This document shows positions 1,292 through 4,837 of a DNA stretch of 64,000 nucleotides, one piece after another. How positions within the stretch are numbered: position 1 is the stretch's first letter; every line of letters starts with the position of its first letter. The DNA lies in NCBI GenBank assembly GCA_963838345.1, contig CAWIQU010000008.1, positions 442,305 through 506,304 on the forward strand, in the 5' to 3' direction. This DNA is from an uncultured Acidobacteriaceae bacterium. GTDB lineage: Bacteria > Acidobacteriota > Terriglobia > Terriglobales > Acidobacteriaceae. Made by a program: the position numbers and the translations under genes. Under the pieces are notes generated by a model. The model was given only the letters and a program-made list of their open reading frames with translations. It had not been told where the DNA came from and ran no database searches.

Positions 1292-1332
1292 AGAGGGGCC
1301 AGTGGGGGCAAATTATTTTCCGGATGGCTGCT

Positions 1333-1348
1333 AACTAAAGGATTAGTT
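1333..1348. promoter_or_regulatory. Palindrome AACTAA-N4-TTAGTT, candidate BlaI operator
   Basis: Perfect inverted repeat ~65 bp upstream of the blaI-family start; the same core recurs at 3220-3233. Confidence 0.6.
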
Positions 1349-1413
1349 GGTCCGTCTCACGATCAGTTCGGCTTTCCCTCCGGTCGTTTTGAGGGTGGCC
1401 AACGAGAGATTCG

Positions 1414-1815
1414 ATGCCACCTAGGAAGTCCATCACATTGACGGAAGCGGAGTTACGGCTCATGAAGCTCTTATGGGCGCGTGGCGAGTCGGCTGTAGGC
1501 GACTTGGTGGCGGCGATGCCGGATGGGGCGGCTCTGGCCTATAACTCGGTTCTGACGACGATCCGGATTCTGGAGCAGAAGGGCTATGTGCAGCACCGGC
1601 AGGAGGGTAGGGCGTTTCTGTATGTTCCCTGCGTGGCTGAGCAGGAGGCTAGCCGGTCGGAGGTCCGTCATATGATGCAGCGGTTCTTCGGCAACTCGCG
1701 GGAGAGGCTGCTGCTTTCGCTGCTGGGTGACGATGAGGTGACTCCGGAGGAGTTGCAACGTCTGAAAGAAGCGATCGCTGCCGCCGCGGACGACCGTGTG
1801 GGGGAGGATCGATAA
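1414..1815 (+). CDS. BlaI/MecI/CopY family transcriptional repressor
   Basis: LTEAELRLMKLLW...LAYNSVLTTIRILEQKGYV...GRAFLY...FFGNS...LLSLL winged-helix signature. Confidence 0.92.
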   Translation: MPPRKSITLTEAELRLMKLLWARGESAVGDLVAAMPDGAALAYNSVLTTIRILEQKGYVQHRQEGRAFLYVPCVAEQEASRSEVRHMMQRFFGNSRERLLLSLLGDDEVTPEELQRLKEAIAAAADDRVGEDR

Positions 1816-1817
1816 CG

Positions 1818-3218
1818 GTGATGGATCTGAACCTGTTGCAGAGTATTGAGAGTGTGTCGCGGTTGGTGGCAAGCTCGTTTGTTTCGGGGCTTTGGCAGGG
1901 AATTGTGCTGGCCGCCGGTGTGGGGCTCTGTCTGCGGCTGGTGCCGAGGACGACCGCCGCGGTGCGTTTTGCTATTTGGACAGCAGTGTTCGCCGTCGTG
2001 GCTGCGCTGCCGTTGGTGCATGCCTATTCTTTGAACTCCGGTGGCGATATGCCGGGACGTAGTGCTCTGGTGCACGTGGATATGCGCTGGAGTTTTGTGA
2101 TTGCCGCACTCTGGTTGACGGTTTCACTAGTACGCGGCATCAAGCTCGTGATGAGCGCAGTGCGCTTGCGTGGGATTTGGAAGAGAGCGGTGCCAGTGGA
2201 GGGTTGCGATGCCGTGCTGTTGGCAGCGGGTTTTCGCGGAGTCGAGCTCTGCACTTCGAAGGATGTGGACCGACCCAGTGTGATTGGTTTCTTCTCGCCG
2301 CGGATTCTTATTCCAGAGGAGCTCTTTGCACGGCTGACGACGGCGGAGTTCGGGCAGATTGTGTTGCATGAGGTTGGGCATCTGCGGCGAGCTGATGATT
2401 GGGTCAATTTGCTGCAGAAGCTGAGCCTGGTGGTGGTTCCGCTGAACCCGGTGTTGATGTGGATCGAGCGGCGGCTATGCCTGGAGCGCGAACTCGCTTG
2501 CGATGATGATGTGCTGCGGTTGACCAAGGCTCCGAAGGCGTATGCGACCTGCCTGACAAGTCTGGCCGAGCAGAGGCTGGGCCGCCGGGCGGCGGCACTG
2601 TCGCTGGGCGCGTGGGAGAAGCAGTCGGAGCTGGCGCGGCGGGTGCACAGTATTTTGCGGAGCGGCGAGGGGATGGGCCGGACGCAGGCTCGAGTCTTGA
2701 TGGGTTTGGCTGTCGTGGCCCTGTTGGGCGGCTCAGTCGAGCTGGCGCGATGCCCGCAGTTCGTTTCATTTTCACGGACCGCATTGCCGGTGTCGGCTGA
2801 GGTGCAGAGCCTGCCCACGGCGGGGTATCAGGCAGCGGCGTTTCACTCATCGGGAAACGTAATGGGTGCCGCCCACGAGACTTTGCTGAAGGCTTCGATG
2901 CCGGTGAATCGTGAGGTTGGCTTGACGGATACGGTCAAGCGGCCGGCTGTCCCCGTGAAGAAGGCCACAACCAAACGCCACACTGCGACTCCGGTCCAGC
3001 AGAGCCGGGTTGCGATGCCGCAGATGCGGCGAGCGGAGCGCTGGATGGTACTGACCTCGTGGGATGGAATGGAACGGCCGAGAATGGTGCTTGCCGTGAC
3101 CGAAGAGCGTGTGATTTCTACTTCGTATGCAGCCGTGCCAACTGCGGGCGGCTGGCTGATTCTTCAACTTTTAACCAAGCTGTTCAACCCTTTGCTGAGG
3201 TACGAATATGTCTCTTGA
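1818..3218 (+). CDS. M56 family (BlaR1-like) membrane metallopeptidase / signal transducer
   Basis: Several TM segments, PSVIGFFSPRILIP, HEVGH zinc motif, ERELACDD, Y...L..LA; directly downstream of the BlaI gene. Confidence 0.9.
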   Translation: MMDLNLLQSIESVSRLVASSFVSGLWQGIVLAAGVGLCLRLVPRTTAAVRFAIWTAVFAVVAALPLVHAYSLNSGGDMPGRSALVHVDMRWSFVIAALWLTVSLVRGIKLVMSAVRLRGIWKRAVPVEGCDAVLLAAGFRGVELCTSKDVDRPSVIGFFSPRILIPEELFARLTTAEFGQIVLHEVGHLRRADDWVNLLQKLSLVVVPLNPVLMWIERRLCLERELACDDDVLRLTKAPKAYATCLTSLAEQRLGRRAAALSLGAWEKQSELARRVHSILRSGEGMGRTQARVLMGLAVVALLGGSVELARCPQFVSFSRTALPVSAEVQSLPTAGYQAAAFHSSGNVMGAAHETLLKASMPVNREVGLTDTVKRPAVPVKKATTKRHTATPVQQSRVAMPQMRRAERWMVLTSWDGMERPRMVLAVTEERVISTSYAAVPTAGGWLILQLLTKLFNPLLRYEYVS

Positions 3219-4785
3219 AACTAATAAATTAGTAGGTAAGGCGGGACGGATTGCCGCTCCCGCAGGTGCTGCCGCGGCACTGGTGCTGGCAGGTTCGATG
3301 TTCTTTCATTACAGCGGCGTTCATGCGGCGATGATCTCGTCGCCTGCGCCGATGGACGACAACAGTGTGTCTGCGCTGGTCTCGCTGGATAGCGCGGTGG
3401 AAGCGGTTGCCTCGCGGGTCTCGCCTGCAGTGGTGAATATTCAGGTGACCTCGCGTGGGTCATCCGAACATGAGACTGGCGGGGAGCAGGATCAGAGCCA
3501 GCAGGAGGCACCTCAAGGAGTGCCTCCGGGTTTTGCCCAGTTCTTTGGACCGGGCGGTCCCTTTGGCGGTCAGATGCAACGGCCGCAGCAACCGCAGATT
3601 GAGCATGGAATTGGCAGCGGCGTGATCATCTCTCCCGATGGCTATATCGTGACCAACAATCACGTCGTCGATGGATCGATGGACATGCGCGTGACGTTGA
3701 GCGACCGGCGCGTGCTCAATGCGAAGCTGGTTGGCGTGGATAAGCTGACCGACCTCGCCGTGATCAAGGTGGATGCGCATGATCTGCCAAGTATCGCCTG
3801 GGGCGACTCCACGAAGCTGAAGCCAGGCCAGACGGTGCTGGCGTTCGGTAGCCCGTTTGGATACTTCCAGAATTCGGTGACGCGCGGCATCGTGAGCGCC
3901 GTGAACCGGGAAAATCCTTACCGTGATGATGCGCGCAAACCCGGTGGCTACATCCAGACCGATGCAGCGATCAATCCGGGCAACTCCGGTGGCGCGCTCG
4001 TGAATGCGCATGGCGAATTGGTTGGCATCAATACCTTCATCATCTCGAACAGCGGATCGTTCGCGGGTGCTGGGTTTGCCATTCCGTCGCAGCTTGTACG
4101 CGCGACGGCGGAGCAGCTGATCAAGAGTGGAGTTGTGCATCATGGCTATCTCGGCATCAGCTTGAACGACGTGACGCCGGCGAATGCCAGCTTCTTCAAT
4201 CTCAAGACGGCTACGGGAGCGATCGTCGCGCAGGTGACGCCTGACTCTCCGGCCAGCAGCGCTGGGTTGAAGAACGGCGACGTGATTGACACGTTGAATG
4301 GAGAGAAGATCGAGAACGGCAGTGCATTGCAGGTTGCTGTTAGCGAGATTGCTCCGGGAACGACGATCAAGCTTGGTGTTCTGCGCAACGGAAGCCCACA
4401 GACTCTCGATGTGAAGGTTGGCGAATTCCACAAGAGCACCGACGTCGCGAGCGATGGCGATTCGGCGGGTCCACAGAAGGGCAAGCTCGGGTTGGCAGTT
4501 GCTGAGCTGACTCCGGATGTGCGGCAGCAGCTGCATATTCCGTCTCAGGTGAACGGTGTCGCGGTCGAGAGCGTTCGTCCTGCGAGCCCTGCTGAGGATG
4601 CCGGCCTTACTCCTGGAGACGTGATCCTTGAGGTCGATCGCAAGCCGGTTACTTCCGCTGAGCAGTTCGTCAACGAGGCGCACGCCAACCCGGCAGGGAA
4701 GGATCTGCTGCTGCTGGTTTGGTCGCAGGGAAATGCGAGCTACCGCGTTGTGCACACGGACGGTGGCAATCAGAACGGCGAATAA
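3208..4785 (+). CDS. degP: Do/DegP/HtrA family periplasmic serine endoprotease with two PDZ domains
   Basis: GSGVIISPDGYIVTNNHVV, DLAVIK and QTDAAINPGNSGGAL triad motifs; two PDZ-like repeats; GAGG SD. Confidence 0.93.
   Translation: MSLETNKLVGKAGRIAAPAGAAAALVLAGSMFFHYSGVHAAMISSPAPMDDNSVSALVSLDSAVEAVASRVSPAVVNIQVTSRGSSEHETGGEQDQSQQEAPQGVPPGFAQFFGPGGPFGGQMQRPQQPQIEHGIGSGVIISPDGYIVTNNHVVDGSMDMRVTLSDRRVLNAKLVGVDKLTDLAVIKVDAHDLPSIAWGDSTKLKPGQTVLAFGSPFGYFQNSVTRGIVSAVNRENPYRDDARKPGGYIQTDAAINPGNSGGALVNAHGELVGINTFIISNSGSFAGAGFAIPSQLVRATAEQLIKSGVVHHGYLGISLNDVTPANASFFNLKTATGAIVAQVTPDSPASSAGLKNGDVIDTLNGEKIENGSALQVAVSEIAPGTTIKLGVLRNGSPQTLDVKVGEFHKSTDVASDGDSAGPQKGKLGLAVAELTPDVRQQLHIPSQVNGVAVESVRPASPAEDAGLTPGDVILEVDRKPVTSAEQFVNEAHANPAGKDLLLLVWSQGNASYRVVHTDGGNQNGE
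3220..3233. promoter_or_regulatory. Second ACTAA-N4-TTAGT palindrome inside the first codons of degP
   Basis: ACTAATAAATTAGT has the same core and spacing as 1334-1347. Confidence 0.5.
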
Positions 4786-4799
4786 GCTGAATCCCTTTG

Positions 4800-4837
4800 G
4801 GCCGCTGCGTGATGGATTAGCAGCGGCCATTTTTTTT
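4800..4837 (+). terminator. Rho-independent terminator after degP
   Basis: GGCCGCTGC/GCAGCGGCC stem followed by a T8 run. Confidence 0.8.

Follow-up and report, generated by a model that had tools for sequence, protein, structure and literature searches.

The window, a stretch of 64,000 nucleotides from the genome of an uncultured Acidobacteriaceae bacterium, carries three genes on the forward strand that encode a BlaI-family repressor (blaI), an M56-family membrane protease and a DegP/HtrA protease (degP), together with two copies of a palindrome that we treat as putative operators (O1 and O2; Table 1).

Table 1. Genes and sequence features of the blaI-M56-degP locus, in window coordinates.
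Feature	Position	Strand	Description
Putative operon promoter	1330–1358	+	GCTAAC (1330–1335), N17, CGTCTC (1353–1358); O1 fills the spacer
Putative operator O1	1333–1348	.	AACTAAAGGATTAGTT; perfect 6-N4-6 palindrome
blaI	1414–1815	+	133 aa; BlaI/MecI/CopY-family winged-helix repressor, PF03965
M56 protease gene	1818–3218	+	466 aa; BlaR1-like membrane zinc protease, HEVGH at residues 184–188
M56 frameshift site	3165–3176	+	CAACTTTTAACC; relatives have CAA CTT TAA (Q-L-stop)
degP ribosome-binding site (RBS)	3197–3200	+	GAGG, 7 nt 5' of the ATG; read from the sequence
degP/htrA	3208–4785	+	525 aa; Do-family periplasmic serine protease-chaperone, TIGR02037
Putative operator O2	3219–3234	.	AACTAATAAATTAGTA; overlaps degP codons 4–9
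Intrinsic terminator	4799–4837	+	GGGCCGCTGC, 11-nt loop, GCAGCGGCC, then A and T8; read from the sequence

Profile searches agreed with the original prediction on a BlaI-family repressor and on DegP as the third gene. BlaI matched PF03965 (Penicillinase_R) with 103.4 bits (cut-off 22.6) over profile positions 1–114 of 115 and aligned end to end with the structures of MecI (1sd6, 1okr) and BlaI (1sd4). DegP scored 448.2 bits against TIGR02037 (cut-off 416.2) and contains an N-terminal signal or anchor sequence, a Trypsin_2 domain (residues 136–274), two PDZ domains (313–404 and 453–505), and, in its translation, the His, Asp and GNSGG Ser motifs; the genome holds at least three HtrA paralogues, including this one. 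blaI and the M56 gene are 2 nt apart in the window and overlap by 4 nt or lie 0–5 nt apart in 57 relatives, and a published survey placed 96% of M56 genes at most five genes from a BlaI-like gene (PMC13492132). A gaGg consensus occupies the position of the degP RBS in 66 loci. The terminator was not called by a scan with a loop limit of 8 nt, its own loop being 11 nt. We consider it probable that the three genes form one operon between the putative promoter and this terminator.

The M56 protein has PF05569 as its sole domain match (residues 94–278, 93.6 bits), and H184, E185, H188, and E225 were invariant in 58 M56 orthologues. In its AF2 model, residues 1–330 were confident and residues 330–466 had pLDDT <50. 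Foldseek returned S. aureus BlaR1 as the best match (8exq, 8exp, 8exr; probability 1.00), with TM-scores of 0.60–0.62 against BlaR1 chains that comprise only the transmembrane and protease parts. No PF00905 match for a penicillin-binding/transpeptidase domain was found in a profile search, as predicted, and the score on the blaR1_generic model (NCBIfam NF000326) was 56 bits vs. a cut-off of 400. Because of these two results and a tail without a fold, we classify the protein as BlaR1-like and not as a BlaR1. Its C-terminal tail (~150 aa) is predicted to be periplasmic and disordered; a folded sensor domain was considered and rejected, the AF2 model giving a disordered tail only. The lack of a penicillin-binding sensor is nevertheless usual, since only ~6% of M56 proteins have a transpeptidase sensor (PMC13492132), making sensor-less proteins the rule in this family and not an oddity.

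The palindrome pair and its conservation

The sequence ACTAA-N4-TTAGT occurs twice with identical spacing, as originally noted, with copies ACTAAAGGATTAGT at 1334–1347 and ACTAATAAATTAGT at 3220–3233. Its full form is AACTAA-N4-TTAGTT, and one helical turn separates the centres of its half-sites. O1 ends 65–66 nt 5' of the blaI ATG, whereas O2 begins one base past the M56 stop codon (3216–3218) and, in agreement with the prediction, also encodes part of degP (codons 5–9, ACT AAT AAA TTA GTA, T-N-K-L-V; ATG at 3208). When the window was shuffled 100 times, the expected palindrome count was 0.00. Based on base composition, ~1.9 matches are expected anywhere in a genome; the scan of the 5.85-Mb genome that had been suggested with the prediction returned exactly two, both in the blaI-M56-degP operon and 1886 bp apart. 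In a genome scan with a position weight matrix, O1 ranked first (27.1 bits) and O2 second (25.7 bits), followed by a site of 19.1 bits beside an ORF with an IS110-like transposase N-terminus (by reading). Nothing convincing beyond O1 and O2 emerged as a further regulon member from this whole-genome scan.

We compared 110 orthologous blaI-M56-degP loci, comprising 30 family loci and 80 named Acidobacteriaceae loci, which form two deeply split clades (100/100 support in the tree). Gene order was retained in 29 of 30 genera of Acidobacteriaceae, and the culturable relatives with the module include Granulicella aggregans and Acidicapsa dinghuensis. The O1 palindrome was present 5' of blaI in every locus (30/30 and 80/80; 110/110 in total), and nearly every locus long enough to reach the M56/degP junction had the O2 palindrome there, while the flanks of both sites were not conserved; the palindrome is identical in the two clades. 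A chance origin of the pair can be regarded as excluded, because ~110 other species retain the palindrome at each of the two positions in their orthologous loci.

Within the window's clade (clade 1), the degP ATG lies exactly 11 nt ahead of the palindrome in 64 loci, and the codons beneath the palindrome are nearly fixed. Codon 5 reads ACT in 65/66 loci, against a background share of 10.7% among Thr codons; AAT fills codon 6 in 59/66 loci (background: 31.6%); and 61/66 loci have TTA as codon 8, although TTA accounts for 0.6% of Leu codons in the background. Codon 4 ends in A in 66/66 loci, even though the residue itself varies among nine amino acids. Comparison of the synonymous positions of T-N-x-L-V with the palindrome, which had been put forward as a check, showed that they are strongly kept across 64 species, and this pattern indicates selection at the nucleotide level on O2 inside the degP codons. 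Codons 4–9 are part of a signal-peptide extension of DegP in which amino-acid identity seems to be free.

The predicted dual-coded intragenic operator is borne out as far as the silent positions are frozen, but its position inside the gene is lineage-specific, since the sister clade carries the same palindrome just upstream of the degP RBS, outside the ORF. From this placement, the O2/degP overlap is best explained by a start-codon shift: an operator was apparently absorbed into coding sequence when the start codon moved and now dictates rare codons in one clade. Eight species have an altered right arm (TTAAGA) at O2. A single origin of this arm was rejected, as it appears at least four times separately in the tree, and a perfect O2 is therefore not indispensable.

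The probable link between BlaI and the palindrome

The recognition helix of BlaI (LAYNSVLTTIRILEQKGYV) is nearly invariant among orthologues, and the palindrome lies in the promoter region of blaI itself in all 110 loci, which is the arrangement of an autoregulated gene at the sequence level. We regard BlaI as the likely binder of the palindrome because the genome has no other strong site, because the paralogous BlaI genes each come with a separate palindrome of equal geometry, and because, in distant families, BlaI genes that share the recognition helix but lack degP have the same 16-mer in their promoters. Three paralogous BlaI genes in the genome encode different recognition helices, and their palindromes (CCTAA-N4-TTAGG, CCTAT-N4-ATAGG, and ACGAA-N4-TTCGT, each 5-N4-5) are each fused to a TTGACA −35 box. 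Outside Acidobacteriaceae, 3 of 18 motif matches lie no more than 40 nt ahead of a BlaI gene; the three genes concerned encode the helix PAYNTVSTIVRILEKKGFV, have an M56 partner and lack degP, and at their loci the motif is the spacer of a TTGACA-N17-(C/T)ATAAT promoter. The canonical operator core of BlaI/MecI/CopY repressors is TACA/TGTA, from which the present half-site (AACTAA, spacer of 4 nt) departs in both sequence and spacing; this departure bears on specificity and not on family membership.

BlaR1 cuts BlaI directly, at N101/F102 (PMC9834060). The aligned residues are S102-L103 in the window's clade, where Ser replaces the P1 Asn of BlaI, and N-I/L in the sister clade, and S102-L103 falls within an invariant RFFxNS...L(L/V)L block of the BlaI orthologues.

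The promoters are less clear. The O1 region of 87 clade-1 loci has the consensus tGcT-AACTAAT...TTAGTT-G.TCGTCta, and the putative operon promoter resembles an ECF-type promoter in sequence (AAC / CGTC; AAC-N16/17-CGTC) and may be one. Scans of the window and two relatives with sigma-70 consensus sequences found no canonical promoter at either operator, so the promoter assignments are weak. GCTAAC-N16-CGTCTA has five matches in the genome, including ORFs with HU-like and FtsH-like N-termini (by reading); the looser AAC-N16-CGTCTA, with 32 matches, does not exceed a composition-matched control (54 matches), and a common ECF-type promoter is a lead only. Between M56 and degP, no conserved promoter was found in the window's clade. 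In the sister clade, O2 is preceded at a distance of 5 nt by a T-tract and TTG(ACA).

A proposed BlaI-M56 switch for HtrA/DegP

Taken as a whole, these results are probably best explained by a BlaI-M56 switch that controls HtrA/DegP through two operators. A BlaI dimer would bind AACTAA-N4-TTAGTT at O1 and O2. O1, embedded in the operon promoter, would provide autoregulation, and O2, at the very start of degP, would act as an extra lock on the output gene. Upon an extracytoplasmic cue, M56 would cleave BlaI in its dimerisation helix, BlaI would leave both operators, and HtrA/DegP would be made along with fresh repressor and sensor. The output gene suggests envelope or protein-folding stress as the cue. 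For O2 in the window's clade, we favour a roadblock to read-through transcripts from the blaI promoter, because there is no conserved promoter between M56 and degP; a dedicated degP promoter is possible in the sister clade because of the T-tract and TTG(ACA), and, as a third possibility, O1 and O2 could loop together.

Other readings of the palindrome pair fit less well. That another, unlinked transcription factor recognises it, with BlaI controlling something else or itself via another sequence, would account for a motif unlike the TACA/TGTA site, but a global regulator of that kind should have more sites than those of one operon. It would also have to explain why the motif accompanies BlaI genes with the same helix in distant families without degP, and why the BlaI paralogues have analogous, distinct palindromes at the same promoter position; we regard it as improbable. 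The repeat might instead act as an RNA hairpin on degP translation initiation, processing or termination, given that O2 falls inside the degP ribosome footprint in the window's clade and that GC-rich genomes often have AU-rich early codons. However, O2 folds with only −1.5 kcal/mol (z-score in context: +0.5), and 197 sites have invariant arms, no compensatory pairs and a variable loop, which together are the signature of a DNA palindrome read by a protein. O1 would, by the proposed promoter position, lie upstream of the transcription start, and at the out-of-family loci a sigma-70-type promoter can be recognised whose spacer contains the motif. We rejected the hairpin on its weak energy and lack of covariation, and its probability is very low. 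Even less credible is a neutral, presently functionless O2 left over from a promoter region that was duplicated long ago: eight species tolerate the two-base change in the right arm, but the site is retained letter for letter in two deeply split clades, at unconserved intergenic DNA in one setting and at silent codon positions in the other, and even the TTAAGA variant retains the rare codons ACT, AAT and TTA.

A further alternative keeps the wiring, with HtrA as effector, and changes the input, the M56 tail sensing pH, a metal, an antimicrobial or a cell-wall fragment. A tail predicted to be disordered and without a recognisable domain would be compatible with such a specific cue, as is the association of sensor-less BlaIR systems with cell-wall hydrolases, virulence and energy metabolism, and no inducing condition was found for CenIR of C. 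difficile (PMC13492132). Against it, though only indirectly, the sole output is a quality-control protease that is induced by envelope stress in other bacteria, and we consider a specific cue possible but rather unlikely.

The BlaI-M56-degP switch, as proposed, shares several features with BlaI/BlaR1 and MecI/MecR1 of Staphylococcus aureus and Bacillus licheniformis: a gene for a winged-helix dimeric repressor adjoins an M56 gene, the palindromic operator would be autoregulatory, the modelled M56 fold matches BlaR1 (8exq, 8exr), and derepression would follow from proteolysis of the repressor, which in those systems is direct cleavage (PMC9834060). Unlike BlaR1 and MecR1, the M56 protein has a disordered tail in place of a penicillin-binding sensor. 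A single operon starts with the repressor gene and has the output gene further downstream, whereas theirs are divergent, and the output is HtrA instead of beta-lactamase or PBP2a. The putative operator reads AACTAA-N4-TTAGTT in contrast to TACA/TGTA, and a second one is placed at the beginning of the output gene or within it. Also related are CenIR (C. difficile), PvmSR (P. aeruginosa) and BlaIR Rv1846c/Rv1845c (mycobacteria), in which M56 also lacks a transpeptidase domain and has a short, mostly unstructured C-terminal region. These three have roles outside beta-lactam resistance, some of them in the cell envelope. An HtrA/DegP output is not reported in the papers on them, and both names are absent from the CenIR text; they also differ from the present system in its apparent single-operon regulon and its two-operator layout, conserved in >100 species.

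Intragenic auxiliary or roadblock operators are established in E. coli, namely lacO2 in lacZ and the PurR operator in purB. As in these cases, the putative repressor site in degP would serve a protein code and a DNA-binding code at once, although it lies in a signal-peptide extension and is outside the ORF in the sister clade. In E. coli, degP is controlled by sigma-E/RseA/DegS and CpxAR and is induced by envelope stress. The proposed system would likewise induce a periplasmic quality-control protease via a membrane-spanning relay, but, unlike sigma-E/RseA/DegS, its transducer would destroy a DNA-bound repressor and not an anti-sigma factor. It thereby points to a third induction route for HtrA/DegP, besides the sigma-E and Cpx types, in a major, poorly studied soil phylum. 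Literature searches found no prior description of a BlaI-M56-HtrA link, and the operon is probably an undescribed way of switching on HtrA. A beta-lactam sensor is missing from about 94% of BlaR1-like M56 proteins, and inputs or outputs are known for almost none of them (PMC13492132). With one operon, one output of known function and a sharply defined operator that occurs exactly twice, all conserved in >100 species, the logic of a sensor-less BlaIR system becomes directly testable.

The C-terminus of M56 is conserved and hydrophobic, ending in ...YAAVPTxxGWLxxQL-COOH in the window's clade; that of the sister clade ends in ...[KR]x[ILMT]-COOH. It may be that HtrA and this tail constitute a closed feedback sensor, in effect a sensor of protease capacity on a BlaR1 scaffold, with the C-terminal end serving as tethered ligand or substrate of the HtrA PDZ domains. 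While idle, HtrA would then bind or trim the tail, so that M56 stays silent; once unfolded envelope proteins titrate HtrA away, M56 would cleave BlaI and HtrA production would rise. We put this forward as a speculative extension that is unlikely at present. Alignment with the nearest relatives showed one extra T in the M56 gene of the window, in the T-run at 3169–3172, through which the stop codon is lost, 17 residues are added and the reading frame overlaps the degP start, while the M56 proteins of clade 1 end in ...GWLxxQL; the frameshifted C-terminus could reflect a damaged sensor or a sequencing error.

Organization and conservation of the module

The blaI, M56 protease and degP genes follow a cupin gene as one putative operon, and a strong hairpin with a T8 run after degP would close the transcription unit (table); the 11-nt loop of this hairpin exceeds the loop limit of the terminator scan, which hence missed it. 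The genome encodes seven BlaI-family proteins and at least three HtrA paralogues, and the module is therefore one dedicated pair for one of several HtrAs. The palindrome ACTAA-N4-TTAGT, originally seen to occur twice with identical spacing, is exact at both places, upstream of blaI (O1) and at the degP start (O2), which are candidate BlaI operators. The window contains two exact matches (shuffled windows: 0.00), and a scan of the whole assembly (5.85 Mb, 57.8% G+C), as the original prediction had proposed, returned exactly two, both in the module, with 0 or 1 match for each of the other spacer lengths. Because composition alone predicts about two sites anywhere in the genome, the signal is the shared operon location and not the number of sites.

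Coordinates of the module in the window and of paralogous BlaI-family genes in the same genome
Feature	Position	Properties
Cupin gene	ends at 1291	precedes the module
O1	1333-1348	AACTAAAGGATTAGTT
blaI (BlaI/MecI/CopY-family repressor)	1414-1815	PF03965, 103 bits
M56 protease gene	1818-3218	HEVGH present; further domains: none found
degP (Do-family HtrA/DegP)	3208-4785	two PDZ domains; TIGR02037, 448 bits, above cut-off
O2	3219-3234	AACTAATAAATTAGTA
Intrinsic terminator	4799-4837	GC stem 9-10 bp, 11-nt loop, T8
Paralogue, contig C3	C3:1289955-1290293	palindrome CCTAA-N4-TTAGG
Paralogue, contig C10	C10:154901-155242	palindrome TCTCCTAT-N4-ATAGGAGA
Paralogue, contig C1	C1:216283-216621	palindrome ACGAA-N4-TTCGT

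Using the M56 protein as a query against 81 genomes of the same GTDB family, we found an orthologue in 32. Gene order was kept in 29 of the 30 fetched loci (the remaining one runs off its contig), and essentially all of them (30 genera) had AACTAA-N4-TTAGTT both ahead of blaI and in the interval from the M56 stop to degP; these loci had no other sequence within two mismatches, save for a few isolated matches with two mismatches. A second sample, drawn with a BlaI-orthologue profile, comprised 80 further named genomes, all from Acidobacteriaceae or close to it (Edaphobacter [the nearest], Granulicella, Terracidiphilus, Silvibacterium, Acidicapsa). O1 was found in 80/80 and O2 or its variant in all loci reaching far enough. 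Information content is about 2 bits at the twelve arm positions and about 0 in the flanks, with two low-information positions in the center of the spacer and an A/T bias at its outer positions. Among 401 genomes of the phylum, pairs of the exact 16-mer 1.8-1.9 kb apart were confined to this family, outside which the 16-mer and a reversed control are similarly rare. A different 16-mer, AACTAACCAGTTAGTT, occurs once per genome in unrelated families (G422, G092, G155, G302, G312, G222, G089, and G463) and probably belongs to a conserved gene or RNA, or serves a different regulator as its operator.

O2 within degP codons

The M56 tree divides the loci into two clades (support 100/100). In the window's clade, the degP ATG precedes the palindrome by exactly 11 nt (64 loci with ATG), giving M-x-x-x-T-N-x-L-V. 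Compared with codon usage in the same degP genes, codon 5 is ACT in 65/66 (10.7% of Thr codons), codon 6 is AAT in 59/66 (31.6% of Asn codons), and codon 8 is TTA in 61/66 (0.6% of Leu codons), and the third base of codon 4 is A in 66/66 even as the residue varies among nine amino acids. These silent positions are nearly invariant while codons 2, 3, and 7 vary freely, a pattern of selection on the DNA and not on the peptide; in the originally proposed check, the synonymous positions of degP 5' ends in this clade keep the palindrome. In the sister clade, 2-15 nt separate the palindrome from the degP Shine-Dalgarno sequence downstream of it, and the palindrome's own TAG is often an in-frame stop. 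Judged from these alignments, the putative operator stays constant, and the degP start codon is what moved between clades.

Eight species (L006, L045, L057, L060, L061, L063, L075, and L100) carry AACTAA-N4-TTAAGA(G) at O2, a variant that changes Val to Arg in degP, retains the rare TTA codon, and arose in at least four separate places in the M56 tree. O1 is canonical in six of them and deviates in its left arm in L006 and L100. The recurrence of the variant indicates that a perfect right arm of O2 is favored and not obligatory.

BlaI as candidate binder and M56 as transducer

Three kinds of evidence favor BlaI as the protein that would bind O1 and O2. With a weight matrix built from 197 sites, the window sites scored 27.1 and 25.7 bits and the next genome match 19.1 (adjoining an ORF read as an IS110-like transposase), a gap suggesting that the regulon is the operon itself, as expected of a local autoregulator. 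Three BlaI paralogues of the same genome differ in their recognition helices, and each is accompanied by a palindrome of its own with the same geometry, the right arm of which is joined directly to a TTGACA -35 box; O1 of the sister clade shows the same fusion (TTAGTTGAC). Together, these helices and palindromes are ready material for working out a BlaI-family recognition code. The paralogous blaI-M56 pairs also have a second dyad near the -10 box.

Of 18 fetched out-of-family places with the exact 16-mer, three, which belong to two further families of the phylum, have it 20-40 nt ahead of a BlaI gene whose helix, PAYNTVSTIVRILEKKGFV, closely matches LAYNSVLTTIRILEKKGYV of the window's BlaI. 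An M56 gene follows at all three and degP is absent, showing that the motif follows the repressor and not the protease gene. At these three loci, the palindrome fills the interval between the two boxes of an evident TTGACA-N17-(C/T)ATAAT promoter, with a further copy directly adjoining the -35 box. In L111 (3749-3784), L112, and L120, tandem palindromes 20 bp apart bracket a TTGACA-N17-CATAAT promoter upstream of a blaI-M56 pair that lacks degP; the M56 protein there has a long Lys/Glu-rich, coiled-coil-like C-terminal region.

All 58 orthologues compared retain H184, E185, H188, and E225 of M56. Confidence in the AF2 model is high for residues 1-330 (membrane helices and protease), and its top fold matches are cryo-EM structures of S. 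aureus BlaR1. Residues 330-466, which follow the final predicted membrane helix, come out as disordered in the prediction and would, by analogy with BlaR1, be periplasmic. Almost every orthologue of the window's clade ends in ...YAAVPTxxGWLxxQL-COOH. The window reads CAACTTTTAACC at 3165-3176 and its relatives CAACTTTAACC; the extra T in CAACTT(T)TAA abolishes the M56 stop, adds 17 residues and removes the conserved ...GWLxxQL C-terminus. This change, shared with one close relative (L035), may be a homopolymer sequencing error. BlaR1 cuts BlaI directly at N101/F102 (PMC9834060), a bond that aligns to S102-L103 in the window's BlaI and to N-I/L in sister-clade BlaI; the block around it is invariant.

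The module would work like BlaI/BlaR1, its repressor being a member of the BlaI family. The M56 protein is BlaR1-like but lacks the sensor domain that defines BlaR1: no domain besides M56 was found in it, in agreement with the predicted lack of a penicillin-binding sensor domain. Sensor-less BlaR proteins are the majority of the family (PMC13492132) and have been linked to cell-wall hydrolases (CenIR), virulence (PvmSR), and energy metabolism (mycobacteria); the papers found make no mention of HtrA or DegP as output. The original interpretation, a proteolysis-switched circuit that may control DegP through an intragenic operator, is supported. New are the operator sequence, the output, the layout of two operators within one operon, and the absorption of an operator into coding sequence by one lineage.

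Promoters and possible action of O2

Scans with the sigma-70 consensus, covering the window and two relatives, gave no promoter match at either operator. The consensus around O1 in the window's clade (tGcT-AACTAAT..TTAGTT-G.TCGTCta) might be read, with uncertainty, as GCTAAC-N16/17-CGTCT, an ECF-like AAC/CGTC promoter with the operator as its spacer; this pattern showed no genome-wide enrichment over a control pattern. GCTAAC-N16-CGTCTA precedes an HU-like ORF and AAC-N16-CGTCTA an FtsH-like ORF (C6:26815 and C6:317597; read from N-termini); these resemble the box around O1, with which they may share an alternative-sigma promoter. Between M56 and degP, the window's clade shows no conserved element resembling a promoter, which favors read-through from the blaI promoter, and O2 could act there as a roadblock to read-through transcripts or as a looping partner.

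Sister-clade loci (L008-L030) have a conserved CGTCTAAT box that follows TTAGTT(G)AC by 16 nt, about 19 nt downstream of O1. A conserved GCAAC(C) box lies about 18 nt upstream of O1 in the same loci, and GCAAC recurs directly adjoining the palindrome on its left (GCAAC-N16-GCAAC). These GCAAC and CGTCTAAT boxes could belong to a second regulator or an ECF-type promoter. A conserved A-run/T-run, gcAAAtTTTTTTTG, lies a few nt after the M56 stop and 5-20 nt upstream of O2 (L008-L029), and a likewise conserved TTG(ACA) stands 5 nt upstream of O2; the two elements could represent a separate degP promoter (-35 region), a UP-like element or a weak terminator. A GC hairpin precedes the A-run/T-run in some sister-clade genomes.
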